Assembly (NCBI GenBank): GCA_965219995.1
Contig: CBDCOX010000002.1
Span: 1,888,001-1,952,000 of the forward strand
DNA length: 64,000 bases
Source: Candidatus Latescibacterota bacterium
Lineage (GTDB): Bacteria > Latescibacterota > UBA2968 > GCA-2709665
Direction: 5' to 3'
Positions within the stretch are counted from its first letter, which is position 1, and each line of letters opens with the position of its first letter. Positions 34,785 to 64,000 of this stretch are shown here, in pieces. The notes beneath the pieces are model-generated. The model ran no database searches. It had not been told where the DNA came from and saw only the letters and a list, made by a program, of their open reading frames with translations. The position numbers and the translations under genes were made by a program.

Positions 34785-36305
34785 ATGTTCAGAGGGAGTC
34801 CCCGTACAAGCTGCCTCCCGCTCGTCGCGGGTCTCGTCCTGGGCTGCGGCGCCGAACGTCTCACAACGCCGCAGAATGCTCAGACGAATGGAAACGTCCG
34901 GCGGCCGCTGGCCAAACTGGCGGCGAACCGTCAGGCACCGCTGGCCGTGGTCGTCGCCCGCCTTCGACAGGCCGGCACCCCTGTAAGCGGTGCCACCGTG
35001 GCGTTCGCCCGCTCGATTTCAGGAAGGGGCGCCAGCTACGAGTGGACCGGCACGACCGATGGACGCGGGCAGGCGCGAGTGGCGGTCGGAGAAACGCAGA
35101 CGGGCGGATACTATCGCGCGCAGGCACGCAGGAACGGAATCCCAATAGGGTCGTGGTCCAGTATCCCGATAAACCGCGGCGTCCAGCTCACCGTTGAACT
35201 ACCCGTCGGCGAAAAGGCACACGTCACGGGCTCAATCCGACTGACACCGGGCGGTCTCCCCGCAGAAATCCCGATTGGCGTTGTTGCGCCCCTGACGGTC
35301 CGTCAGACCCAATACGGTGCGGGCATTGACAGCGGCCTGAAACTCGCACTCGAAGAGATCAACGGCACAGCGAAGCTCGGGGGCGCAAATATCGTTTTCA
35401 AGAGAGAGGACTCCCGCGGCATGGCGCAGGGCGCCGTTGGCGCGTTCAACAAACTGATCTTTCACGATTACGTCTCCGTCATCCTCGGTCCCGCCCTCTC
35501 CACCGAAGCCAAAGCCGCATTTCCTGTCGCGCAGCAGAACCAGGTTGTCGCCTTCAGTACAACCTCGGCCGCGTCGGGCCTGAGCGCGATTGGCGACTAT
35601 ATCTTCCGTGCGAGTCTCAGTGTAGACGTGCTCATCCCTGGCGGGGTCGCCACGACAAGCGAGAAACTGGGATACCGCAGGGTCGCCCTTATGGTGGACT
35701 CCACCGACGTCTATTCCCGCAGCAGCGACGACGCGCTGCGCAGCGCCCTCACCGAAAACAACGTGGAGATCCTGACGAGCGAGACGTTTGCGACTGACGA
35801 TACTTCCTTTGTCGATCAACTTAGCCGTATCAGCGCCCTGAATCCCGATGCCGTTTTTGTTTCCGCCCTGTCCCGGCAACGCGTTCGGATTCAGGTCCAT
35901 GGCCGACGCCAGGGCATTCCTGCCAACATTCCCTTTATCGTGCCGGGGTTGACTCAGGAGGAAGTTCGGGATGCCGGCGATGCCGCGGAGGGTGCGATCG
36001 CCTTTACCGGCTGGACGGCCACGTCAACCACACCCGGGAATCACTCCTTCGTCGAGAATTACAGGTCGAGATTCGGCGCTGAACCGAATCGGTGGGCTGC
36101 GCAGTCATACGCCGCGCTATATGTTCTTTCAGAAGCAATTGCAATGGCCGGGTCCACGGATCCCGGCGCCATACGCGAAGCGATGGCCGGCATTACGGAC
36201 CTGGACACCGTTCTGGGTCAATTCTCGTTCGACCGCAACGGAGACGCGGTCTACGATCCCGTCGTGCTGGTCGTGAGAAACGGCGAGTTCGAGGATTTCG
36301 AGTGA
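34785..36305 (+). CDS. lipoprotein: unnamed N-terminal beta-rich domain + LivJ-type substrate-binding domain
   Basis: Lipobox VLG-C; IPIGVVAPLT, LALEEIN and VILGP periplasmic binding protein type 1 motifs. Confidence 0.85.
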   Translation: MFRGSPRTSCLPLVAGLVLGCGAERLTTPQNAQTNGNVRRPLAKLAANRQAPLAVVVARLRQAGTPVSGATVAFARSISGRGASYEWTGTTDGRGQARVAVGETQTGGYYRAQARRNGIPIGSWSSIPINRGVQLTVELPVGEKAHVTGSIRLTPGGLPAEIPIGVVAPLTVRQTQYGAGIDSGLKLALEEINGTAKLGGANIVFKREDSRGMAQGAVGAFNKLIFHDYVSVILGPALSTEAKAAFPVAQQNQVVAFSTTSAASGLSAIGDYIFRASLSVDVLIPGGVATTSEKLGYRRVALMVDSTDVYSRSSDDALRSALTENNVEILTSETFATDDTSFVDQLSRISALNPDAVFVSALSRQRVRIQVHGRRQGIPANIPFIVPGLTQEEVRDAGDAAEGAIAFTGWTATSTTPGNHSFVENYRSRFGAEPNRWAAQSYAALYVLSEAIAMAGSTDPGAIREAMAGITDLDTVLGQFSFDRNGDAVYDPVVLVVRNGEFEDFE

Positions 36306-39650: not shown

Positions 39651-42600
39651 CTAGAACAACCCGGTGAAATCTATCGAGAAATACTGCTTGGGATGGACTG
39701 TTTCCGCGAAATCAGTCGGCCACGCCAGGTCGTAGCGGAACAAAAAGGCGCCGAGATTGGCTCGAACACCGAATCCGTAGCCCGCTTTCAGATCCCTGAG
39801 TTCAAAACCACCGTCCCGCGCTTCCCATGGCTCGAAGCTGTCTCGATCGAACGCACTCCCTACATCCAGGAACAATTCGCCCTGGACATTCTGGAAGAAA
39901 AGCGGCAACGGCCAGCCCATTGCCAACTGCCGGATCAGCGGAAAGCGAAAGGCGACATTGGCCAGCACGAACGAGTCTCCGGCCATCTCGAATACGTCGG
40001 CGCCGCGCAGCGGCCAGACGAAGCTGGAGAAAAACACACGTTCCCGGTCAACGGACGCGAATGTGGCGTAGTTCGGATTGATGGAATTGTTCACGCCACC
40101 GAGGAAAAAGACCTGACTGTTCCGGCCGAAACTGGTCCCTCCGGACATGCGGACCGCAAATGTGTATTCCTCCAGCATCGGGACGTATTTGCGGTAGTCG
40201 GCCTGCACCGTGCCGTACTGCATCCCCGCCCAACTGCCTCTGAGAGACAACCTCGCCCGCCGTCCCTTAACCGGGCCGAACTGAGAATACAACGCGTTGT
40301 CTTCGACGATGTCCAGGCTGTTAATTACGGCCCAGTTGTCGGAAACAGGCGTTCCGCTCCCGCGGATGACCCTGCCCGTATAGCCGGCCCGAAGGTATTG
40401 ACTTTGATAAGCGCCGAGGTTCTCGCGTGAAATATTGATCCCCTGCATACTCGTCTCAATTCGCGTAAACCGGTTGAACGGACGCTGGAATACAGCCCCG
40501 CCGCCGTAGATCCTGTCGGCTACGATCTGACCGTTCGAAATGAAGAAGTTCCGAGTATGCAGCGCATTCAGGTAGTAATTGGTCTGGTGCTTGAGGTTCT
40601 GGTATCCGAGGAAGAGATCGCTGTCTTTGAGGGAGAAGCTCAGCCCTGTTCTGATCAGGATACGGTGGTCGCCCATCACGTCGGTCAGTGACAGGTGGAG
40701 CAGGCTGCTGACACCGTAGAAGGTGTCGAAGCCCGCGTTGGCTCCCAATGACTCGGGTTTGAGTTTCACGCGGTATTTGTTGATCGTGAACGCCTTGTTC
40801 CAGTCTCGCAGCGTCAGTTCCCTGTCGCCGTCGGTCTCCAGGCTGTCGCCGTCGGCAGCCGCTCCGTCGTCGTCTCCGCGCGCTTCGGCGGCCGCCAGCG
40901 CCATCTGGTCCGACATCCACGTCTCCACCTTCCTGTCCGCCGCCGCTGTCGCCACCGCCGTGTCTGCCGCTGCGGCCGCCACCGAACTGTCGGGTTCCGC
41001 GCCGCCGTGTGCGGCTTCCTGCCTGCGTTCCTTCTGCAACTCCACGAACGGGCGGTCTTCGATGCCCGCCAGCCGCTTCGCATACCGCGTCAGCGGCAGG
41101 TCCTCCATCCCGCGCTTCTTCTGCAGCGGGTCCTTCATCACGAAGATGTCATAGCCCCCGCGGTGAAACGTCGTGAACGCCAGCTTCTTGCCGTCCGCGC
41201 TCCAGTCGATGTACCGCGCTCCCGACAGCAGATTGCTGATCGGATACATCTGCGACCCGTCCACGTGCGCAATGTAGATGTTGCCCACCCCCGTCCTGTC
41301 CGACACGAACGCCAGCGTCTGGGAGTCCGGTCCCCACGTGGGATGACTGTCGTTCACCTCGCTCTCCACCACCTGCCGGATCTCGCTGCCGTCGGCACGC
41401 AGCACGAACACGTTATACGTGCCGAACACAAAGTCCTTCGACCCGTCGTATTCCAGATCCGCGCCGGGACGGTCCGAACTGATCGCGATCCACTCCCCGT
41501 CCGGCGACCAGTCCAGGTGCTTCTCGTCATACGGGTCCCGCGTCATCCGACGCAGACCCTCGTCCTCCACGTTTACGATATACACGTCCGACCACCCGTC
41601 CTTCAACCCCACGATCGCGATCTGCTTCCCGTCCGGCGACCACGTCGGCTCGAACAACCCGTCCAGATCGAACTCGAATCGCTTCGTCACCCGCTTCTTC
41701 CGCACGTCCAGCGTATACAACGTGTTCTTGTTGCGCGACTTCGCCGCAAACGCGATCTGCTTCCCGTCCGGCGACCACGTGATCCCGGGACGCAGCACGA
41801 ACAACCCCTCGAAATCCGACGATCGCTCCCCCTCCACCAACCGGCCCAGATCCTGGCCGTCGATCGCCGACATCAGATAGATGTCGAACGTACCCTCACG
41901 CTCCGTCACATACGCGATCTTGTCCCCCTGCGGCGAAAACGACGGCGCGATATTGTAAAAACCGCGACCCGCGCCCGCCTCCGTCAACTGCTTCGCCACC
42001 TCCTCCGACGGATGGTGCAGGTTGATCTCGTTCCAATACTGACGCTTCAACCACAACTGCCACTTCTCGTCCAGCTCCTCCACACCCTCACCCACCGACG
42101 CCTTCAGCGCCTTGTCCACCGATCGCGCGGAACGGAACGACGATATGAACTCCGCCACCTTGTCCTTGCCATACTCCTCCTCGATCATCACGAAGACCGA
42201 CTGACCCCCCTTATACGCAAACGCACCGCTCAGCGACATCATCCCCGGCACATACCCCGTGATCGTCGCATGACGCATGAAATTGTCCGCCTCGCCGTCC
42301 CATCCACCCTGTGACAAATACTCCGCCACTCCCTCCGCAATCCACAACGGCGGCAACGACGCCGTCTGCGTCATCATCGCACCCAGCCATCCGCCGCCCG
42401 TCCACATCTCCAGCGTCACCACGTGCACCAGCTCATGGTGGATCACGTGACGGAAATCGCTATACGACCCCGTATACGGGATCACCACACGACCCTGCGC
42501 AAACTCCGTAAAACCCCCCGTGAACTCCGACTGCTCCGTCGGCGTGATGTTCGTCACCGAAAACCCGTTGTGAGAATTGTAGATCACGATCGGATATCGA

Positions 42601-42845
42601 TCCTTCAACGTATACTTCAGATCCTTCTCCAGACGCACCAGCGCACGCTCCGCCTCCTTCGCCGCAAACTCCGCCGCAGGCTGAGACGCCTTGTCGAAAT
42701 AGATCTTGAAATGCTCCGTCTCCAGATAGTGCCAGTCGTAATCGTCATACGTCACCTTGTTCTTGCCGAAATACTCCTGGCCCACAGCACTGCCGCACAC
42801 GAAGAGACTGATTAGAATTCCTGACGCCAGACAACGCCGGATCAT
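39651..42845 (-). CDS. peptidase MA-like + PD40 (TolB-like) propeller + Omp85/BamA-type barrel protein
   Basis: FGKNKV, HELVH zinc motif, WIAEGVAEY, multiple WSPDG repeats, DYRKY, FFLGG, GFGVR and terminal F; AGGAGG RBS before ATG 42845. Confidence 0.88.
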   Translation of the reverse strand: MIRRCLASGILISLFVCGSAVGQEYFGKNKVTYDDYDWHYLETEHFKIYFDKASQPAAEFAAKEAERALVRLEKDLKYTLKDRYPIVIYNSHNGFSVTNITPTEQSEFTGGFTEFAQGRVVIPYTGSYSDFRHVIHHELVHVVTLEMWTGGGWLGAMMTQTASLPPLWIAEGVAEYLSQGGWDGEADNFMRHATITGYVPGMMSLSGAFAYKGGQSVFVMIEEEYGKDKVAEFISSFRSARSVDKALKASVGEGVEELDEKWQLWLKRQYWNEINLHHPSEEVAKQLTEAGAGRGFYNIAPSFSPQGDKIAYVTEREGTFDIYLMSAIDGQDLGRLVEGERSSDFEGLFVLRPGITWSPDGKQIAFAAKSRNKNTLYTLDVRKKRVTKRFEFDLDGLFEPTWSPDGKQIAIVGLKDGWSDVYIVNVEDEGLRRMTRDPYDEKHLDWSPDGEWIAISSDRPGADLEYDGSKDFVFGTYNVFVLRADGSEIRQVVESEVNDSHPTWGPDSQTLAFVSDRTGVGNIYIAHVDGSQMYPISNLLSGARYIDWSADGKKLAFTTFHRGGYDIFVMKDPLQKKRGMEDLPLTRYAKRLAGIEDRPFVELQKERRQEAAHGGAEPDSSVAAAAADTAVATAAADRKVETWMSDQMALAAAEARGDDDGAAADGDSLETDGDRELTLRDWNKAFTINKYRVKLKPESLGANAGFDTFYGVSSLLHLSLTDVMGDHRILIRTGLSFSLKDSDLFLGYQNLKHQTNYYLNALHTRNFFISNGQIVADRIYGGGAVFQRPFNRFTRIETSMQGINISRENLGAYQSQYLRAGYTGRVIRGSGTPVSDNWAVINSLDIVEDNALYSQFGPVKGRRARLSLRGSWAGMQYGTVQADYRKYVPMLEEYTFAVRMSGGTSFGRNSQVFFLGGVNNSINPNYATFASVDRERVFFSSFVWPLRGADVFEMAGDSFVLANVAFRFPLIRQLAMGWPLPLFFQNVQGELFLDVGSAFDRDSFEPWEARDGGFELRDLKAGYGFGVRANLGAFLFRYDLAWPTDFAETVHPKQYFSIDFTGLF
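41616..41780. repeat. exact 30-bp direct repeat (PD40 blades)
   Basis: CGCGATCTGCTTCCCGTCCGGCGACCACGT at 41616-41645 and 41751-41780, encoding TWSPDGKQIA twice. Confidence 0.85.
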
Positions 42846-43399
42846 GACTGACCTCCTTACCTGTGCCTGAGCTGCGGCGGCCTCTTCCTCGGGACGGCAA
42901 ACGATGCCGACGCCGGTACCGCGCCCGCTCGATCCGTATCCACCGGCGTATTTCATGATCGTCCGAAGGCGATGGGGTGGAGGTCGGCCGCCGGGATTTT
43001 ACCGCCCCCACCCCTGTTCCCGCAGGACAACTGCGGGAATCACTCACGTCTATAAATGGGATATCGTTACGTTTCAGAGAAAGCTGACGATCCTACCGTC
43101 ACACTACACCATTAGAACGACGGTCCCGCCAAATCGTTCCCCCATTTTTCCCGATGACATCCGCCGTGTCTTCCATATATTAGCCGGCAAGGGCGTCAGA
43201 TCCCGCACATCCGGATCTGTGCCCTGAACCGAAATACCCTGAAGTATAACCGATATACTTCCCGGCGGACGACACGCGCGAGAGAGCTACCGGACAACGG
43301 TGAATCGAATTGTCGAACTGTCCGGCGATGTTCGGCGCGCCTCGGCGTGCATTCGAACGCCGGCGCCACCGCCGGACACCTCCACGGGAACCACAATCG

Positions 43400-53383: not shown

Positions 53384-53415
53384 TCCGGATGTTGTCCTGC
53401 AACATCCGGATTTTT
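53384..53415 (+). terminator. intrinsic terminator after ilvB
   Basis: Stem TCCGGATGTTG/CAACATCCGGA followed by TTTTT. Confidence 0.85.
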
Positions 53416-53425
53416 GTGCCTTACG

Positions 53426-53454
53426 GGAACGCCGGCGGCAACGCGCATGTCTAA
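53426..53454 (+). promoter_or_regulatory. ECF (RpoE-type) promoter
   Basis: GGAACGC-N16-GTCTAA upstream of the ECF sigma gene. Confidence 0.7.
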
Positions 53455-53590
53455 AAATGTGCAAAGACGAGGTGCGTGCGGCACGCCCGGCCCCAGAGCG
53501 TTAAGGGCTGTTCTTCAAACCACTCCCGGTTGCCCGGTGCAGCCGCGATCGTTGCTGGTATGGACCCATGCCGTGTTTTCGGGAGCCCGA

Positions 53591-54181
53591 ATGGGTGAAG
53601 ACCTGGATCTGGTCAGACGCTGCCAGGAAGGAGACCATCAGGCGTATCGCACGCTGGTGGAACGGTACGAAGGGCGGATCTACAACCTTGCCTGCTCGAT
53701 TATCGGCGACAGGGAAGCCGCTCGCGATGCCGCCCAGACAGCCTTCATTCGAGCATATCAGGCGCTTCCCGGATTCCGCGCCGACGCCGGCTTCTACACC
53801 TGGCTTTACAGAATCGCCGTCAACGTCTGTCTCAATGCAGCTCAGAAAGAAAAACGCCGTCGGGATACGACCTCGCTCGACGATCTGCTGGAATCAGGAC
53901 ATTTTTCTTCGGAACACCTCTGGGAACATCGTACACCGCACGGCGATTTCGAACGGATGCAACTGCAGGATGTGATTCAGGGAGTTCTGGATCAACTCTC
54001 GCCCGACCACCGGCTTGTAATCGTCCTCAAAGATATACAAGGATTCTCACAGGAAGAAATTTCCGAAACGCTGAATTGTTCGGTCGGCACAGTCAAATCC
54101 CGTCTCTCTCGGGCACGGGCGAACCTGAGGGATTTACTCCGGCCGATATACGACGAATGGAAAGAGGGGACCGCGCCATGA
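53591..54181 (+). CDS. ECF RNA polymerase sigma factor (RpoE/SigW-like)
   Basis: Region 2 (FYTWLYRIAVN) and region 4 (EEISETLNCSVGTVKSRLSRAR). Confidence 0.95.
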   Translation: MGEDLDLVRRCQEGDHQAYRTLVERYEGRIYNLACSIIGDREAARDAAQTAFIRAYQALPGFRADAGFYTWLYRIAVNVCLNAAQKEKRRRDTTSLDDLLESGHFSSEHLWEHRTPHGDFERMQLQDVIQGVLDQLSPDHRLVIVLKDIQGFSQEEISETLNCSVGTVKSRLSRARANLRDLLRPIYDEWKEGTAP

Positions 54182-54618
54182 ATGACTCAGATGTCAGGAG
54201 CCTCTTGCCCGATTACCTGGAGTCCAATTTGTCCGCCGAACAAATGCGGGAGGTCGAGGCACATCTGGCAGTCTCGGCCGCGTGCCGGGATGAACTGGAT
54301 TATCTCAGACGCATGCAGCGCCTGCTCGCAGCCAGACCCGAATCCCCGCCGCCCGGAATCTGGCAGAGCATTGCACGGCAACTTGTCGTCGAAGACGTCG
54401 CGGAGCCGTGGCAACAGTTCGAATGGGTAGGAAAGAGGTTCCTTCCCGTCCTGGCCGCCGCGGTCCTGCTTCTTGCGGTCCTCGGCAATCTCACGACCGA
54501 AGCGCCGGCACTTACGCTGGAAGACTATTTGAATGCCCAGTGGGATGAACAGGAAACCGAAATGCTTAGCGACGCCGAACTCGCCGACGACGTCCTGAAA
54601 ATCTTGCAATCGAGGTAG
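54178..54618 (+). CDS. anti-sigma factor (zf-HC2-like, one TM helix)
   Basis: LLPDYL...HLAVSAAC, single TM segment, ATGA overlap with the sigma gene. Confidence 0.85.
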   Translation: MNDSDVRSLLPDYLESNLSAEQMREVEAHLAVSAACRDELDYLRRMQRLLAARPESPPPGIWQSIARQLVVEDVAEPWQQFEWVGKRFLPVLAAAVLLLAVLGNLTTEAPALTLEDYLNAQWDEQETEMLSDAELADDVLKILQSR

Positions 54619-54621
54619 TCC

Positions 54622-55482
54622 ATGTCCGAAAACGCAACCCGGCGCAAAGCCGTTCTGCTGGCGTTGGGCATTCTGGTGGTCGGTATAATTCTCGGCGCAA
54701 CCGGCCGGAACTGGCTTTCCGCTGTGGGCGACAGACAGACGCAGGAACCCCGGGAGCGACTTCGCATTCCACGAATGGGCGCGACGTCGGAACGCCTGTT
54801 GAAGCGATATTCCCGGCATCTGGATCTGTCCGACGCGCAGCAGGCGGAAATCGATCAGATTCTGGATCAGAGCCGGGAGCTGATGGTCGAGGTGCGGAAG
54901 AACATCGGTACGAAAATCGAAACGGTGAGGCGGGACACGTGGGCCAAGATTCGCGACGTCCTCACACCCGGTCAGCAGGAGATATTCGACGAGTTGACCA
55001 GCCCGGTATCCCCGAACATTATCCTTCGGCAGTTCAAGAGACGTCTCGACCTCAATGAGGATCAGCAGGCGGAAATCTCACGCATTCTCAAGGATAACTG
55101 GGCAGAAATGAGAAAAATGCGCCGGAAGATCCGGGAGAGGTTGAAGGAAATTCATGGAGATTCGCGCACCGAACAACTCAACCTGCTCACACCTGAACAG
55201 AGGAAACAGGCCAAGGGCAGGTGGAACCCGGATCTCTCGGGCGAGCAGCGTACGGAAATGGATCGCATCAGGAGAAAGAGTCGCGAGACAACGCGCCGGC
55301 TTTTTCAGGAACGCGACGAGCAGCTGGGTCTGGCGGTGCGGAAGACGTGGCTGGAAGTCAAGACCCGCCTCGACTCGAATCAGGTGGCGAAGTTCCAACG
55401 AATCACGGACGGTATCGAGCGGCGCATGAAGTGGGAACGGCAGTTCCGGCGCAGACCGGGCGGCAGACCTTCGGGGTTCTGA
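54622..55482 (+). CDS. Spy/CpxP-like (LTXXQ) membrane-anchored protein
   Basis: N-terminal TM; LSDAQQ, LTPGQQ, LNEDQQ and LTPEQ motifs. Confidence 0.78.
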   Translation: MSENATRRKAVLLALGILVVGIILGATGRNWLSAVGDRQTQEPRERLRIPRMGATSERLLKRYSRHLDLSDAQQAEIDQILDQSRELMVEVRKNIGTKIETVRRDTWAKIRDVLTPGQQEIFDELTSPVSPNIILRQFKRRLDLNEDQQAEISRILKDNWAEMRKMRRKIRERLKEIHGDSRTEQLNLLTPEQRKQAKGRWNPDLSGEQRTEMDRIRRKSRETTRRLFQERDEQLGLAVRKTWLEVKTRLDSNQVAKFQRITDGIERRMKWERQFRRRPGGRPSGF

Positions 55483-55490
55483 GGGACGAG

Positions 55491-55519
55491 GGAACACTCT
55501 CAGTCTGTCATCTGTCTAT
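55491..55519 (+). promoter_or_regulatory. second ECF-type promoter
   Basis: GGAACAC-N16-GTCTAT, same geometry as the promoter at 53426. Confidence 0.65.
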
Positions 55520-55636
55520 AGCGTAAAGCCCCTCCGAATGGACGGCCGGACTGCAGCCGGTCACAACGGGGCTCGTCACGTGCGGGCAACCGCCCCAATG
55601 AACAGCAAGCCGGGTTAACGGAAAGGAGAAACAACC

Positions 55637-56152
55637 ATGAAACGTCTCGCCATCATCGCGGCCGTCGTCATTCCAATCCTTGTCATCGCCTGGGTTCTGC
55701 CCACAAACGCACATCGGGGCAAACGAGGCTGGAAGGGCGGGAAGGCGTCAATGGCGGCCCTGGAGCTGACTGCGGAACAGAGAACCAGGATGGAAAGTCT
55801 CAAACTGGCGCAGGCCAAACAGATGGCTCGACTGCGCGCCGATCTGAAGGTCGCCAGACTGGACCTCCGGGCCGCGATGAGGAAGGACGAGCCAGATGCT
55901 GCCGACGTCAAAGCGAGCGTCGCAGCCGTAAATGGCGCCCGATCCCTGATTCTGGAAAGCCGCGTCAACCACCGCCTCAAGGTCAACAGCATCCTGACAC
56001 CGGAGCAGCGGACCAAGCTTCGTGAATTGCGAAGCGATCGATCCAGGAAGGGGTGGGGCAAGATGTGGCGTAAGGGACGCTACCATAAGCGTTTTCGAGG
56101 AATGGGAGAAAAACGCCCCGACGGCGCCGACAGCCGCCCGTCTTCAATCTGA
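55637..56152 (+). CDS. Spy/CpxP/ZraP family periplasmic protein
   Basis: AAGGAG RBS, signal peptide, LELTAEQ and ILTPEQ motifs. Confidence 0.85.
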   Translation: MKRLAIIAAVVIPILVIAWVLPTNAHRGKRGWKGGKASMAALELTAEQRTRMESLKLAQAKQMARLRADLKVARLDLRAAMRKDEPDAADVKASVAAVNGARSLILESRVNHRLKVNSILTPEQRTKLRELRSDRSRKGWGKMWRKGRYHKRFRGMGEKRPDGADSRPSSI

Positions 56153-56183
56153 CTGAGTCTGCCGGGATAGAGAGGTTGTAGAA

Positions 56184-57236
56184 ATGTCGTTTCGAAGTTT
56201 TGCCATCGCATCCGTCGCTGCCTCCGTTACACTCCTGGGATGCGGGAACAAGATCCCCGTCGAGTCGCCGACCGGGTCCGGTTCCAACGAAGGCGCAATT
56301 CAGGCCTCAAAGGCATCCACGGACGAGATCAGCTCCAAACTGTATGACGAACGCTCCGACAAGTCCGGGTTCGGCCACCACGGAGGACGGAAATTATCCA
56401 TTGACGCGCTGACCGACTCCCTGGGCCTGAGTGACGAACAGGTTTCAGCGCTTGAGGAACTGAACGAATCCTACGCCGCGGACGTCAAAGCAGCGATCGA
56501 AAGTGCCAAAGCATCCGGCGATCGCAGGGAGCTTCGTGCGAAGTTGCGGGAACTGAGAGAGGAGTATGAGGACGACTTCAACGACATCCTGACGGAAGAG
56601 CAACAAACCCGACTCGAGGAAATCAGGGCCAATGCGGCCGCCCGAAGGAAAGACCGGGGGTGGGAAAATACCATCGCCGCACTCACCGACTCGCTGGGCC
56701 TGAGCGACGAACAGGTGACGGACCTCAATGAATTGTATGAGGACTACCAGGCAGACGTCAAGGCCGCCATGGAAGACGCCGGGGAGTCAGGCGACCGTTC
56801 AGAACTCCGGACCAGCCTGAAGGAATTGAGACAGGCGTTCGAGGACGACTTCAACGATGTCCTGACGGACGAGCAACAGACCCGACTCGAGGAAATCAGG
56901 GCCAACGCGGCCGCCCGAAAGAAGGACCGGGGGTGGGAGAATTATATCGCCACGCTCACTGACTCCCTGGGCCTGAGCGACGAACAGATCGCGGACCTCA
57001 ACGAATTGTATGAAGACTATGAGGCCGACGTCAAAGCCGCGATCGACAGCGCTCAGGAATCGGATGACCGCTCAGGGCTCAAGGAGAAGTTGCAAGAGCT
57101 GAGAGAGGATTTCGCGGATGACTTCAATGCCGTCCTTACCGATGAGCAGAAGGAGAAGCTGGACGAGATGAAATCCGAGGGACGCAAAAGAAAGGGGAAG
57201 GGCCGCCGACACGGCCACAAAGGCAGAAAAGGATAG
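56184..57236 (+). CDS. Spy/CpxP-like lipoprotein with three tandem repeats
   Basis: LLG-C lipobox; three 91-aa units LTDSLGLSDEQ...FNxxLTxEQ. Confidence 0.85.
   Translation: MSFRSFAIASVAASVTLLGCGNKIPVESPTGSGSNEGAIQASKASTDEISSKLYDERSDKSGFGHHGGRKLSIDALTDSLGLSDEQVSALEELNESYAADVKAAIESAKASGDRRELRAKLRELREEYEDDFNDILTEEQQTRLEEIRANAAARRKDRGWENTIAALTDSLGLSDEQVTDLNELYEDYQADVKAAMEDAGESGDRSELRTSLKELRQAFEDDFNDVLTDEQQTRLEEIRANAAARKKDRGWENYIATLTDSLGLSDEQIADLNELYEDYEADVKAAIDSAQESDDRSGLKEKLQELREDFADDFNAVLTDEQKEKLDEMKSEGRKRKGKGRRHGHKGRKG
56410..57175 (+). repeat. intragenic tandem repeat, 273-bp period, 3 copies
   Basis: CTGGGCCTGAG(T/C)GACGAACAG recurs at 56421, 56694 and 56967. Confidence 0.9.
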
Positions 57237-57459: not shown

Positions 57460-58434
57460 CTAGCGGGCTTCGAAAAAGAACCGGATTGTATCCCCCTCTT
57501 TCAACATTGCATCGAAGAACTCATGGTCCTCCTCGTTCAGCTCTCCCGCCGACTGCAGGACAATCCGCATATATTGCTCCCTGGTGAGCGTCAGCGTCAG
57601 GTTGTCCCCCTCCACGTCAACCGAGCCTTCCAGTACCAGCCCGTCTTTCTCAATGATCGTCAGCGTGTTGCCGCGGACCGACCAGGTACCCGCATCCGAC
57701 CAGGTACCCAAACTGTCCTGGTCCGCAAACGTGCCGTCCGAATGGAAACTCCTGACCGGAGACCACACGCTGTCGCGGAGGCTGGCCTCCAGTTCGGCCG
57801 TGACTTCCGAGACAACGAGTGCGGCGGTGGCACTATCCACCACGCCCTCCTGCAGGATGGCGGCAATCAGATTCCGGCTTATCGTCTCAACCATATCCGT
57901 TCCAACGTACGCCCACGATCCGACAATACGCAGAGCCGAGAGCGAGACCGTGCCCGTCACAAGAGTCTTTCCGCCAACGTGCAGTTCAACAGTGACCTGG
58001 TAACCGCCATTGACCGGAATACTCGACCAGGTACCCTGTACGGCGCCATCGATAACAGCGCGCGCACGGTAGTAGCCGTTCACGTTGTCCGACCCGATTT
58101 CGATGCGGGCCACGCCCTGTGCATCGGTTACGCCCGACCAGGCAAAATTCGAGGGCTTGCCCGAGATTGACCGTGAAAGCTCCACGGTGACACCGCTCAT
58201 TGGCGCTCCGTCCTTCAGCACGGTGACGCTCACAGCGGCCTGACTCATCGTCCCGCCAACCGCCAGCTTGCCCAGCGGCTGTCCTGCGTGCCCCTGCCGT
58301 GTTGCAGGGTTCACCACATCGGACGCCGGGTCTGCTTCCGGCGCCATGGAAGTGGTTACCCGGTCACCCCCGCAGCCGGATATCGCTGCCGCGGCAATCA
58401 CCAGACATGACACGCTTCGAATTGCGCCAGACAT
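57460..58434 (-). CDS. lipoprotein: unnamed N-terminal beta-rich domain + lipocalin-like domain
   Basis: GGGAGG RBS, ISG-C lipobox; C-terminal IVGSW...FHSDGTF...GTWSVRGNTLTI lipocalin-like pattern. Confidence 0.78.
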   Translation of the reverse strand: MSGAIRSVSCLVIAAAAISGCGGDRVTTSMAPEADPASDVVNPATRQGHAGQPLGKLAVGGTMSQAAVSVTVLKDGAPMSGVTVELSRSISGKPSNFAWSGVTDAQGVARIEIGSDNVNGYYRARAVIDGAVQGTWSSIPVNGGYQVTVELHVGGKTLVTGTVSLSALRIVGSWAYVGTDMVETISRNLIAAILQEGVVDSATAALVVSEVTAELEASLRDSVWSPVRSFHSDGTFADQDSLGTWSDAGTWSVRGNTLTIIEKDGLVLEGSVDVEGDNLTLTLTREQYMRIVLQSAGELNEEDHEFFDAMLKEGDTIRFFFEAR

Positions 58435-61087: not shown

Positions 61088-61503
61088 GCGCGAGACAATC
61101 CTTTCGTATCGGCGCGGACCTCGACGAATTGCGGCGGGTTGCGGAAGCTGCCGAAGAACTGGGGTTGCAGGAAGACTGGTCGCCGGCCCTGGTGCACCAG
61201 GTAGATCTCGCCATTGAGGAACTTGGAAACAACATCGTCCGGCACGGGCTCGCCGGCGGTCCCGGAGAGATAGAGATTACATTGACCTCGGACGCCGAAG
61301 CGATCAAGATCGAAATTTCGGACGACGGGCAACCCTTCAATCCCCTTAAAGACGCGCCGAAACCCGATCTGGAAGCCGCACTCGAGGATCGGCCCATCGG
61401 CGGACTCGGCATTCACCTGGTTCTTACGATGATGGACGAGATGCACTACCGGCGAGAGAACGAAAGGAATCACCTGACGCTGGTGAAGCGGAGGGCCGGA
61501 TGA
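61084..61503 (+). CDS. anti-sigma factor Ser/Thr kinase (RsbW-like)
   Basis: EELGNNIVRHG, DDGQPFNP and GGLGIHLV motifs. Confidence 0.93.
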   Translation: MSARQSFRIGADLDELRRVAEAAEELGLQEDWSPALVHQVDLAIEELGNNIVRHGLAGGPGEIEITLTSDAEAIKIEISDDGQPFNPLKDAPKPDLEAALEDRPIGGLGIHLVLTMMDEMHYRRENERNHLTLVKRRAG

Positions 61504-62681
61504 GATTCGCGCGCCGCCGGGTGAAGGGGCTGTTCGTCGCGGTGATCACGACTGCCTCCGTCGTGCATGGAAGCGAATACGAAACCGGTGTCTCCGAAGA
61601 GAGGATTGTCTTCGGACAGTCCGCGGCATTCACCGGACCCGCAGCACAACTCGGCACCGACATGAAACGCGGCATCGAAGCGGCATTTCACGAGATCAAT
61701 CGGCGCGGAGGCGTCCACGGCCGGCGGTTGGAACTTATATCCCGTGATGACGCATACGAGCCGGAAGCAGCCATAGCCAACACCCTTTATCTCATTGAAG
61801 AGGCACGGGTTTTCGCGCTCATAGGCGCCGTGGGTACGCCGACGTCGCGTTCCGCGACCCCGGTCGCAGCCGAGGCCGACATTCCCTATATCGCGCCGTT
61901 TACAGGCGCGGCGTTTCTCCGCAAAGCCAGGTGGAACAACGTAATCAATCTGAGGGCGTCGTACGACCAGGAGACGGAGGAGATGGTCGCTCGCCTGACC
62001 GGCGATCTCGGTATCAAACGTATTGCGGTCCTGTACCAGGACGATTCCTTCGGCAGGGCCGGTTACCACGGCGCGCGTCGTGCCCTCGAACGGCGCGAAA
62101 TGGAAGCCGTGGCCGTGGGGTTGTATCCGCGCAATACCACGGCAGTGAAAACGGCATTGCTCGACCTTCGCATGGCAACTCCCGAAGCCGTGATCCTGGT
62201 GGGTGCGTACGAACCGGTCGCGACCTTTATCGCATGGGCGCGGCACATCGGCTGGGATCCTGTTTTCATTACGATCTCTTTCGTGGGCAGCAATGCGCTT
62301 GCCAGGCAGTTGGGCCCCGCCGGTGCCGGAGTCTACGTCACACAGGTCGTGCCGTTTCCGGATGACGACTACTTCCCTGTCGCCACCGCCTACCGTCGAG
62401 CGCTTTCGGCCTTCGAGCCCGCTGCGGCTCCGGGGTTCGTCTCGTTCGAAGGGTACCTGGCCGGTCGCCTCGCAATCGCGGCCCTCCAGCGCTGTGGCGA
62501 AGAGGTAAAACGGGCGACTTTTCTCAACAGTCTTCGCAGCACCAGAATTGTCGATATCGACGGATTCAAACTGCAATACGGCAGCGAGGACAACCAGGGG
62601 TCGGATGCCGTATTCCTCACCATGATCGGTCGCGACGGCCGCTACTATCCAATCGACAGGCTCCAGGAAGCGGCGCCGTGA
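61500..62681 (+). CDS. LivJ-type periplasmic ligand-binding protein
   Basis: GQSAAFTGP, INRRGGVHGR, DDAYEP and VGTPT motifs; ATGA overlap with the upstream gene. Confidence 0.9.
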   Translation: MRFARRRVKGLFVAVITTASVVHGSEYETGVSEERIVFGQSAAFTGPAAQLGTDMKRGIEAAFHEINRRGGVHGRRLELISRDDAYEPEAAIANTLYLIEEARVFALIGAVGTPTSRSATPVAAEADIPYIAPFTGAAFLRKARWNNVINLRASYDQETEEMVARLTGDLGIKRIAVLYQDDSFGRAGYHGARRALERREMEAVAVGLYPRNTTAVKTALLDLRMATPEAVILVGAYEPVATFIAWARHIGWDPVFITISFVGSNALARQLGPAGAGVYVTQVVPFPDDDYFPVATAYRRALSAFEPAAAPGFVSFEGYLAGRLAIAALQRCGEEVKRATFLNSLRSTRIVDIDGFKLQYGSEDNQGSDAVFLTMIGRDGRYYPIDRLQEAAP

Positions 62682-64000
62682 TCCCTAAACTGAAACAGCT
62701 GCTCAAAGGCCGGTTCCGCATTGCAACACAGCTCTATCTGGGAATCGGGGGCGCGGTCGCCATCACGATGGTCGCGAGCCTGGTCGGGTGGTTCTCATTC
62801 GATCTTGTCGGCGACATCCAGAACCGCGTGAACGAGGGCAGCGTCCCGGAAATGGCCGCCGCGTTCGGCGTCGCCCAGCAGAGCGGCACGCTGGTCGCGG
62901 CGGCGCCCCGTTTGACCGCGGCCGCTACGGTGGGCGATTTCGTTCGGGTCAAGGCGGATATCGCCGCAGAGCGCAGGGCCTTCGAATCACAGTTGGCGGC
63001 TCTGATGCAAAGGGACACCAGGCAGGAAGACGAAGAACGATTCAGCCGAATTCACAGCTATGCCGCCGCGCTGATGTCCAATATCGACGCGATTGAGCGG
63101 GAGGTCGCCGAGTTGTTCGAGGTCAGTGCGCGCAGCGAGGAACTGCGCGGGGAGCTGTCCGTTCTCCGGTCCAAATTGTTCGACATGCTCATCCCGGCCA
63201 TCGACGATCAACTGTTCTACGCGATGACAGGCTATCGTACGATCGGCCAGCCGCCCGTGCCGCGCGAGCGCCATTTTTCAGATGAGGAGTTCGACCGGTA
63301 CCGCCATCTGGCCGATTTAAAGGCCGATGCCACCATTGCAACGCAACTCCTGTCGAGTTCATTCAACCTGTCGGACGCGCTCCTGCTGGAGCCACTGCGG
63401 GAGCGCTTCGAGGCCGCCGCCGGGCGCATCGAGCGCAGCCTTTCGGCACTGGGCACATCTCCGTGGCGCGACCAGATCGCCCCGCACCTGAAGTGGCTCT
63501 TCGAACTGGGTCTGGGCGAAAAGGGCGGGTTCGACCTGATCGTACGTGAGTTCGAACTCACCGACCGGCAGCGGAATCTTCTCCAGGACAACCTGAGCCT
63601 CGAAATCAAACTCGGCGCGGAAGTAGAGGGTCTCGTCAGCGCCGCCCGCGAACGTACGCGAGATGCCACGCGGGCATCCACACAGGCGATCGGAACCGGC
63701 CGAAGCGTTTTGCTGGGACTGAACGTGGTCAGCATCACCGGCGCCCTGCTGATCGCGTGGCTTTTCGTCGGCCGCGTACTATTGCGCCGTCTTGAACGGC
63801 TGTCGAACAGAATGCAGGGGATGGCCGAGGGCGACCTGGAAGCCAAAGTCGAAATCAGCGGGCACGATGAAGTCGCGGATATGGCGGCGGCCCTGGAGGT
63901 ATTCCGGCGGCATGCTCTTGAAGTCCAACGCCTGAACCTCGTTGAAAAACTCGCAGAGGAATTACGTGAGAAAAACGAACAGCTTGAAGCCGTGCTGGAG
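62678..64000 (+). CDS. membrane sensor with TorS-like periplasmic domain and HAMP (truncated by window end)
   Basis: Not in the ORF track because there is no stop in the window. GTG 62678 reads MIPKLKQLLKGRFRIATQLYLGIGGAVAITMVASLVGWFSF..., with a second TM and HAMP (GDLEAKVEISGHDEVADMAAALEVFR) near the end. Confidence 0.85.
   Translation, partial: MIPKLKQLLKGRFRIATQLYLGIGGAVAITMVASLVGWFSFDLVGDIQNRVNEGSVPEMAAAFGVAQQSGTLVAAAPRLTAAATVGDFVRVKADIAAERRAFESQLAALMQRDTRQEDEERFSRIHSYAAALMSNIDAIEREVAELFEVSARSEELRGELSVLRSKLFDMLIPAIDDQLFYAMTGYRTIGQPPVPRERHFSDEEFDRYRHLADLKADATIATQLLSSSFNLSDALLLEPLRERFEAAAGRIERSLSALGTSPWRDQIAPHLKWLFELGLGEKGGFDLIVREFELTDRQRNLLQDNLSLEIKLGAEVEGLVSAARERTRDATRASTQAIGTGRSVLLGLNVVSITGALLIAWLFVGRVLLRRLERLSNRMQGMAEGDLEAKVEISGHDEVADMAAALEVFRRHALEVQRLNLVEKLAEELREKNEQLEAVLE

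Follow-up and report, generated by a model that had tools for sequence, protein, structure and literature searches.

We suggest that a domain of ~110 residues, found in two copies in a 64,000-nt stretch of the main contig of a Candidatus Latescibacterota genome (the window, by which we mean the whole stretch analysed), probably serves as an anchor-proximal spacer or stalk domain in one class of this phylum. The constant feature of this module is its position, nearly always between an anchor or sorting signal and a variable domain. In the lipoprotein form, to which both window copies belong, a Sec signal peptide with a lipobox is followed by a tether predicted to be disordered, the module and a cargo domain; after processing by Lgt and LspA the acylated cysteine would hold the protein on a membrane, and the tether and the rigid sandwich of the module would keep the cargo off it. 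In a second, secreted form the order is cargo, module, linker and a type IX secretion C-terminal sorting domain (CTD), with the module taking the place of the Ig-like pre-CTD domain of Porphyromonas cargo. Leader and module together behave like a cassette that has received different cargo repeatedly.

We infer the spacer role, the lipidation and the compartment of the lipoprotein form; the spacer role is preferred because of the anchor-side position of the module, the disordered linker, a sandwich fold that is both generic and rigid, and the RgpB precedent. The immunoglobulin superfamily (IgSF) domain that precedes the CTD of RgpB 'may act as a spacer or insulator', as a passage of the published work puts it (PMC4804311). 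The pre-CTD IgSF domains of Porphyromonas RgpB, Kgp and PPAD lie between the cargo and a flexible linker with its CTD, and the part order is the same in nine C-terminal-type proteins of the genome studied here. Unlike these domains, the Latescibacterota family also stands N-terminally in lipoproteins, and the two are likened by position, a sequence relationship being neither seen nor looked for.

Two putative lipoproteins of the window share a leader and a module

Coordinates refer to the whole window unless prefixed G000:C2, which denotes the main contig of the 5.44-Mb genome. The parts of the two proteins are as follows.

34785..36305, plus strand: copy 1 gene, a 506-aa putative lipoprotein of leader, tether, module and LivJ-type (Peripla_BP_6) domain (open reading frame (ORF), translation, Pfam)
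34785..34847, plus strand: copy 1 predicted signal peptide, lipobox L-V-L-G-C at its end (Cys21; translation, lipobox rule)
34848..34904, plus strand: copy 1 tether GAERLTTPQNAQTNGNVRR (residues 22-40; translation; the next residues, where the module model starts, have pLDDT <50)
34905..35231, plus strand: copy 1 module PLAKLA...HVTG (residues 41-149), a predicted eight-strand transthyretin/CarboxypepD_reg-like beta-sandwich (BLASTP, alignment, AlphaFold2 (AF2), fold matches)
35265..36263, plus strand: copy 1 cargo, a Peripla_BP_6/LivJ-type ligand-binding domain (residues 161-493; Pfam E 6.8e-47)
57460..58434, minus strand: copy 2 gene, a 324-aa putative lipoprotein of leader, tether, module and lipocalin-like domain (ORF, Pfam, AF2, fold matches)
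58372..58434, minus strand: copy 2 predicted signal peptide, lipobox A-I-S-G-C at its end (Cys21; translation, lipobox rule)
58279..58371, minus strand: copy 2 tether GGDRVTTSMAPEADP... (residues 22-52), predicted to be disordered (residues 1-60 have pLDDT <50 in the full-length model)
57952..58278, minus strand: copy 2 module PLGKLA...LVTG (residues 53-161; BLASTP, alignment, AF2, fold matches)
57463..57942, minus strand: copy 2 cargo, a lipocalin-like barrel with helical inserts (residues 165-324; fold matches Z 8.5-9.0)

When the two whole proteins were compared by BLASTP, the alignment (64/158 identities, 41%, E 6e-35) covered the leader and module only; outside them no alignment was found, the next best hit having an E of 0.74. 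The likeness of copy 1 and copy 2 is therefore real and N-terminal only, and the two segments that the initial annotation had matched by eye are homologous copies of a ~110-residue domain. Both segments do exist, although that annotation gave coordinates a few bases off and left the strand unstated; the span given for copy 2 (57940-58282) is out of frame and its translation meets a stop. Its observations that each copy is preceded by a lipobox with C-G-x-[ED]-R-x-T-T and that the C-terminal domains are unrelated (Peripla_BP_6 in copy 1, lipocalin-like in copy 2, with no alignment between them) both hold. An origin of the resemblance in chance or low complexity is ruled out by the E value of 6e-35 and the existence of a 20-member family.

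The N-terminus of copy 1 reads MFRGSPRTSCLPLVAGLVLGC followed by GAERLTT, with the pre-cysteine segment MFRGSPRTSCLPLVAGLVLG-C and the lipobox context LVLGC before GAERLTT; that of copy 2 reads MSGAIRSVSCLVIAAAAISGC followed by GGDRVTT, with the pre-cysteine segment MSGAIRSVSCLVIAAAAISG-C and the context AISGC before GGDRVTT. Both show the positive n-region, hydrophobic core and lipobox cysteine expected of a lipoprotein and are putatively assigned as such, and both pass a PROSITE-style lipobox rule.

The match of the copy 1 cargo to the NCBIfam branched-chain amino acid substrate-binding protein (SBP) subfamily (E 2e-23) is far under the cut-off of that model. The C-terminal 160 residues of copy 2 give only sub-threshold Pfam matches to Lipocalin_4 (E 0.05) and DUF4923 (E 0.14), and copy 2 has no match in NCBIfam. 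Its full-length AF2 model (pLDDT 72) has a strand-rich C-terminal domain with helical inserts, and residues 165-324 match potempin E (Z 9.0, rmsd 3.0, 92 aligned) and BACUNI_01346 (Z 8.5, rmsd 2.8, 91 aligned), Z values that are middling. The lipocalin-like label given to this cargo is moderately supported: the predicted fold speaks for it, and the sequence matches stay below threshold. Only 34 homologues of the copy 2 cargo were found, all close orthologues (67-93% identical in the best alignment, mostly 324 aa long), and the four that have a source name are each called 'hypothetical protein'. Two close orthologues of copy 2 (P0167 and P0168) are labelled as metagenome-assembled genomes (MAGs) of 'Gemmatimonadota bacterium' and orthologues of copy 1 as Candidatus Latescibacterota; the taxonomic labels of the lineage differ between public records.

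Twenty modules in one genome, beside two kinds of anchor or sorting signal

A tblastn search with both window modules as queries revealed 20 module loci in the genome (5.44 Mb, 98.6% complete, two contigs), all on the main contig, so that the module is by no means restricted to the pair first noticed. The proteins of all 20 modules, 18 outside the window and the two window copies, were scanned against Pfam. Eleven of them (group A) are built as lipobox, tether, module and cargo. Six of these eleven carry Peripla_BP_6 (copy 1, one gene 1.1 kb beyond the window end and four in a tandem array), and OpuAC, a NigD_C-like domain, the lipocalin-like domain of copy 2 and Cu/Zn superoxide dismutase (SOD) occur once each. 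The remaining nine (group B) consist of signal peptide, cargo, module, linker and CTD; their cargo is choice-of-anchor I with 5'-nucleotidase in one, Cache domains in five, and unassigned in three. The designation 'lipoprotein module' in the initial annotation consequently fits the 11 copies that follow a lipobox and not the nine that directly precede a type IX secretion CTD.

The CTD is recognised by Pfam as FlgD_ig, in frame and above cut-off, in eight of the nine group B proteins, and module proteins hold 9 of the 20 above-cut-off FlgD_ig matches of the genome; protein B2 also matches Por_Secre_tail with 25.8 bits (cut-off 27). One protein, B3 (G000:C2:4251895-4253657), has no in-frame CTD; directly downstream, a different frame of 101 aa holds an FlgD_ig match (35.2 bits), which suggests a frameshift or an assembly error. 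Among type IX secretion system (T9SS) genes, SprA (TIGR04189; 2092 aa, G000:C2:788473-794325) scores 494.7 bits against a cut-off of 200, and the PorV family has nine genes above cut-off, one of them directly upstream of three module-CTD genes; a PorU-like ORF of 1964 aa reaches 217 bits, under the cut-off of 420. GldM and GldL had no match in the genome, but the control genomes were likewise blank, hence this result is uninformative. Judging from these genes and domains, it is plausible that the group B proteins are T9SS cargo. As the CTD is a known T9SS signal and SprA and PorV are encoded, no novel export route is needed for the C-terminal form, contrary to the dedicated route that had been proposed for the module. 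Full-text literature searches turned up no publication in which Latescibacter* is linked to T9SS or type IX secretion.

Mean column identity in the alignment of the 20 modules is 53%, and identity to the copy 1 module is 44-61% in group A and 32-37% in group B. Nine positions are invariant in all 20 (V16, R36, G40, T51, G55, G68, W84, S86 and P88), and the recurring motifs are RS[IV]SGR, T-D-x-x-G, GYYRARA and WSSIP[IVL]N.

The module family is lineage-restricted

The module was found in all 41 relatives of an order-level sample, with 1 to 21 matches each. Across the phylum, at E <= 1e-5, it was present in 85 of 168 genomes, all in four families of one class (21/21 genomes in family f1, 30/31 in f2, 3/3 in f3 and 30/76 in f4), the positive genomes all being of the same class as ours or closer, and in none of the 36 genomes of families f5-f14 at the same threshold. 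A profile search of 1.84 billion cluster representatives gathered 727 at E <= 1e-3, 342 at <= 1e-10 and 44 at <= 1e-30, and a single-module query of named genome records returned three close loci, all from Candidatus Latescibacterota MAGs and 71-89% identical to the copy 1 module. We conclude that the family is small and lineage-restricted, and that the lineage-specific recurrence postulated in the initial annotation holds in these wider searches.

The two arrangements seen in the genome recur outside it. Architectures were counted in 124 proteins with a single near-complete module among the 150 best representatives. In 57 of them a lipobox, a linker and the module follow each other, with a median of 22 residues (range 6-63) from cysteine to module, and in 34 the module precedes a CTD, 88-116 residues from the C-terminus, a tally that still omits a few Pfam FlgD_ig carriers (e.g. 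P0052, P0087 and P0114). In a further seven an extra domain separates the module from the CTD. The other 26 comprise fragments and unclassified proteins, and Pfam detects FlgD_ig in some of them.

According to Pfam, the cargo of 52 N-terminal-type proteins comprises Peripla_BP_6 (10, one of which also has Sod_Cu), SnoaL (7), Cache (5), Exo_endo_phos (2) and single cases of Sod_Cu alone, OpuAC, Esterase_PHB, Cytochrome_P460, CCP_MauG, PrcB_C, SGL, LRR, Inhibitor_I42 and Lipase_GDSL; 18 have no cargo family assigned. FlgD_ig was found in at least 36 of 52 C-terminal or middle-type proteins, the cargo of which includes Cache, LRR, WD40, NHL, PD40, Laminin_G_3/Pentaxin, FG-GAP, an MtrC-like cytochrome, esterase and Temptin_C.

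A divergent branch of a generic sandwich superfamily

An AF2 model of the module, built from the 20-module alignment, has eight strands with a pLDDT of 85.1 and a pTM of 0.76. A Foldseek search of the Protein Data Bank (PDB) with this model placed transthyretins on top (E ~1e-4, TM ~0.5). VIA-align gave the best scores to a Bacteroides sandwich fragment (3e8v_A; Z 10.2, rmsd 2.4, 81 aligned), YedX (Z 9.8), transthyretin (Z 9.6), the human carboxypeptidase D (CPD) transthyretin-like (TTL) domain (5aq0_B; Z 9.1, rmsd 2.5, 77 aligned), duck CPD (1qmu_A; Z 8.7), a carbohydrate-binding module (2j71_A; Z 8.0) and the SusC NTE domain (Z 7.8), pilin CnaB domains standing lower down. Matches to the transthyretin-like/CarboxypepD_reg sandwich recur with the copy 2 model. 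The Ig/transthyretin-like fold anticipated in the initial annotation is thus supported at the level of a predicted structure (pLDDT 85, Z ~10).

At the sequence level, no Pfam model is above cut-off on any of the 20 modules, and no NCBIfam model on the window copies. The commonest weak match is Big_1 (PF02369), seen in 9 of 20 modules at ~20 bits (E 0.0003-0.002; cut-off 34.9), including copy 1 (19.3 bits) and copy 2 (19.6 bits); the best in the family is P0141 with 29.9 bits. CarboxypepD_reg (PF13620; cut-off 32.3) matches copy 2 with 18.2 bits, other copies with 17-19 bits and, best in the family, P0106 with 30.6 bits, while copy 1 has no match to it at E <= 1; bMG3 reaches 20-24 bits (cut-off 34.9). 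A profile search of PDB sequences returned intimin (E 0.006), SlaB (E 0.012) and nothing else, and in the Pfam and PDB searches the modules had no sequence match to the transthyretin and 5-hydroxyisourate hydrolase (HIUase) families. In the ESM Atlas the best feature scores of the copy 2 module (0.87-0.89, under the lead level of 0.9) belong to unnamed clusters, and one weak cluster has CarboxypepD_reg on 28% of its members. The module profile also gathers giant multi-repeat proteins, and the four that we inspected are arrays of Big_1, Invasin_D3 or CarboxypepD_reg. From the array proteins and the matches below cut-off we conclude that the module is a divergent branch of the well-known generic Big_1/CarboxypepD_reg/transthyretin-like superfamily, with a signature of its own in the second half. 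It is 'unnamed', as first described, in that no library model reaches its cut-off, and one family member comes close to a well-described generic domain all the same (30.6 against 32.3 bits for CarboxypepD_reg), which counts in part against the initial reading on its own terms. What is new is a lineage-restricted, currently unmodelled superfamily member with a steady anchor-side placement, and the module is not categorically new.

With CarboxypepD_reg it shares a seven-to-eight-strand sandwich and the standing of an accessory, non-catalytic domain of exported proteins. The T-D-x-x-G turn and G-Y-Y strand readable in the module alignment are what we take to be the usual CarboxypepD_reg pattern. 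Unlike that family, the module has its own RS[IV]SGR loop and WSSIP[IV]N strand, is fixed beside a lipid anchor or a T9SS CTD, and is limited to one Latescibacterota class among the genomes searched. The Big_1 domains of intimin form a stalk that projects a binding domain from the outer membrane; the likeness of the module to Big_1 spans only about the first 65 profile positions, and the module is single in each protein, not part of a tandem array. The Sulfolobus S-layer stalk protein SlaB (8qox_B) resembles it in the sandwich fold (Z 9.5-9.7), in a weak sequence match (E 0.012) and in having domains that join a membrane anchor to an outer assembly. Unlike the module, SlaB is archaeal and belongs to a lattice, and the match to it is marginal.

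Cargo exchange and orphan LivJ-type proteins

A maximum-likelihood tree was made of 80 modules, 20 from this genome and 60 cargo-labelled representatives (122 columns; other representatives excluded). The N- or C-terminal position of the module requires eight changes on this tree, compared to a mean of 25.6 after shuffling and with none of 500 shuffles as low, and strongly supported branches force just one such change. Within the lipoprotein clade cargo types are interleaved: one LivJ protein, for instance, has as its sister an esterase protein with an identical type of leader (SH-aLRT 90), and OpuAC, Cache, SOD and LivJ proteins fall into one weakly resolved clade. These module sequences provide evidence for repeated grafting of cargo onto a leader-plus-module cassette that was kept; since many forks are unresolved at 122 columns, no event count is taken from the tree or implied. 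The view of the cargo as interchangeable is upheld, with unrelated families on the module mixed in its tree, and a catalogue of them now includes LivJ, OpuAC, Cu/Zn SOD, lipocalin-like, Cache and 5'-nucleotidase domains, among others.

The LivJ-type cargo domains are orphans in this genus, parted from the transporter with which such proteins usually work. There are 14 Peripla_BP_6 matches in the genome, six of them on the module, copy 1 and window 61500..62681 being among the 14. The corresponding LivH/M permease (BPD_transp_2) has no match in the 98.6%-complete genome, a control search having found it in 12 of 14 reference genomes; it is absent from all 15 genomes of the genus and present in 22 of the 41 of the order sample. 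BPD_transp_1 has 22 matches in the genome. Beside copy 1, and at four module-SBP loci inspected outside the window, there is no BPD_transp_2 gene either. No ABC permease or ATPase adjoins any module-SBP gene examined, whether copy 1 or, outside the window, the genes of the tandem array, A4 and A1. With no BPD_transp_2 in the genome or genus, it is unlikely that the LivJ-type protein of copy 1 serves a canonical Liv-type importer.

Across the window end (window 61500-64000 to G000:C2:1952031-1954597), a module-less Peripla_BP_6 gene (61500..62681) is followed by a sensor kinase gene that extends past the end of the window, with a TorS-like sensor domain, HAMP, HisKA and HATPase, and then by the module-LivJ lipoprotein gene A4. 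The three genes together look like a binding-protein-dependent two-component sensor, and the place of A4 directly after the kinase is a hint that some, at least, of the module-LivJ proteins take part in sensing.

How well the spacer reading holds

Several observations weigh against a passive spacer. One group A gene, A8 (G000:C2:3237442-3237987, minus strand), lies within a five-gene module-LivJ tandem array, encodes only a leader and module (181 aa), with no cargo, and runs 8 bases into the start of the next gene; a duplication may have left it behind. An extra domain separates module and CTD in the seven proteins mentioned above, and the Z scores of ~10 are to a sandwich fold that is very common. 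Near relatives often have H, R or N at -1 of the cysteine, with W at -2, residues that a signal peptidase II site does not usually have. Lipidation, location and extension are predictions. The two lines of evidence on the compartment diverge as well: SOD, cytochrome c peroxidase, cytochrome P460 and binding-protein cargo suggest that the lipoprotein form is periplasmic, and a module held in common with T9SS cargo suggests that it is at the cell surface. Finally, the charged or aromatic residues R36, R41, Y69, Y70, R73, W84 and N90 are near-invariant in paralogues that are only 32-61% identical. This would be unexpected for a passive spacer, and the pattern also fits a binding surface.

As the main alternative, it is possible, if unlikely, that such a conserved face binds a common envelope partner and so sorts lipoproteins and T9SS cargo to one place, probably the cell surface. 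Lipopolysaccharide or another glycan, peptidoglycan, a surface layer and a PorV-type shuttle are candidate partners. In keeping with such attachment, the polar and aromatic motifs RS[IV]SGR, GYYRARA and WSSIP[IV]N are near-invariant despite the divergence of the paralogues, one family serves both lipoproteins and T9SS cargo, which ends outside the outer membrane, nine PorV-family paralogues are encoded with one adjoining a module-CTD gene cluster, and the structures that match it in fold extend to an S-layer stalk (8qox_B, Z 9.5) and a carbohydrate-binding module (2j71_A, Z 8.0). However, the partner is a candidate only, the conserved residues may be structural, as G, P, W and Y commonly occupy core and turn positions in a sandwich of this type, and the classic periplasmic cargo (Cu/Zn SOD, cytochrome c peroxidase, cytochrome P460 and binding proteins) speaks against a single surface location. 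A bolder version, which we regard as distinctly unlikely, would have leader, tether and module form a Latescibacterota-specific display cassette that docks through the conserved face on a shared outer-envelope partner (e.g. a PorV-family protein or a surface glycan), lipoproteins and T9SS cargo then standing side by side on the surface; LivJ, OpuAC, Cache and lipocalin-like domains would in that case serve surface ligand capture or sensing, not periplasmic transport, in a genus that has no LivH/M permease.

There is little to recommend, in our judgement, the notion that leader, tether and module signal a lineage-specific lipoprotein route to the surface, with the module needed for passage or release. 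Around the cysteine, conservation is unusually high: among 52 lipobox-type representatives W stands at -2 in 25 and G, S or H at -1 in 26, 13 and 7, respectively, and the consensus at +1 to +4 is G-G-[ED]-R, then V, T, Q or S. Several paralogues, with W at -2 or R at -1, pass only a relaxed lipobox rule, and A4 (LPWGC) is missed by both rules. Five Kelch-repeat lipoproteins without the module (four in tandem; G000:C2 ~3598400-3605000 and ~3051099) have the same kind of leader and tether, reading W-A-C and then G-G-D-S-[VL]-T-T-P-E-Q-P.

Such a route would be analogous to the lipoprotein export signal (LES) of Bacteroidetes, a phylum of the same superphylum, in which a short acidic motif after the cysteine, K-(D/E)2 or SDDDD, sets surface export (PMC5080379). 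The two have in common a short conserved motif directly after the lipidated cysteine; the one found here, G-G-[ED]-R-[VL]-T-T, does not match the Bacteroidetes motifs, having a single acidic residue with Arg after it, and is confined to near relatives. In module proteins further off the lipobox is ordinary and the tether unrelated, which makes the motif a trait of a sub-clade and not of the module; the leader, as the Kelch proteins show, can work in the absence of the module, and no candidate transporter was found. C-G-G-E-R-x-T-T is accordingly ruled out as a property of the module, as it occurs in the Kelch lipoproteins without the module and is missing from distant module proteins. The modification enzymes prolipoprotein diacylglyceryl transferase (LGT; PF01790, 234 bits) and signal peptidase II (PF01252, 132 bits) are both encoded, and nothing outside the standard pathway was found in the genome for the lipoprotein form. 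With an ordinary Sec/lipoprotein leader and with Lgt and LspA at hand, this form, too, gives no support to a dedicated export route. Among the titles and abstract openings retrieved, no relevant paper on Latescibacterota and lipoproteins was found.

Polymerisation, also raised in the initial annotation, obtained no support: that the domain self-associates like transthyretin, which is a tetramer, and so clusters cargo is highly improbable, for although transthyretins and the HIUase YedX are among the top fold matches, the likeness is at the general-fold level (TM ~0.5, 11-21% identity), monomeric spacers match equally well (the carboxypeptidase D TTL domain, 3e8v and SusC NTE), and the transthyretin and HIUase families have no sequence match to the module. 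A homodimer prediction with two module copies scored 0.00 against a mark of 0.42 and, run without controls, has no bearing either way.

Neighbouring genes and significance

Elsewhere in the window, positions 39651-42956 (minus strand) encode an 1101-aa protein that unites Peptidase_MA_2, PD40/DPPIV-type beta-propeller repeats and a C-terminal Omp85 barrel, an unusual fusion. At 53414-57236 (plus strand) a gene for an ECF sigma factor is followed by an unannotated gap and three LTXXQ/Metal_resist (CpxP/Spy-like) genes, the last of which encodes a 350-aa lipoprotein-like protein with three long internal repeats. Between the end of this group and the 3' end of copy 2, which lies on the other strand and runs towards it, there are ~220 bases.

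Neither the module family nor the absence of the permease overturns current understanding. A genus with up to 14 LivJ-type domains and no LivH/M permease does raise the question of what type I binding proteins do without an ABC importer. For the family itself, the alignment and profile provide a searchable definition of a domain that current libraries leave unannotated, and should improve the annotation of hundreds of exported proteins in an uncultured phylum. One leader and module have been reused, cassette-like, for a dozen or more cargo families, a clear example from nature of domain grafting at the cell envelope, and the leader-plus-module cassette could double as a tethering scaffold.

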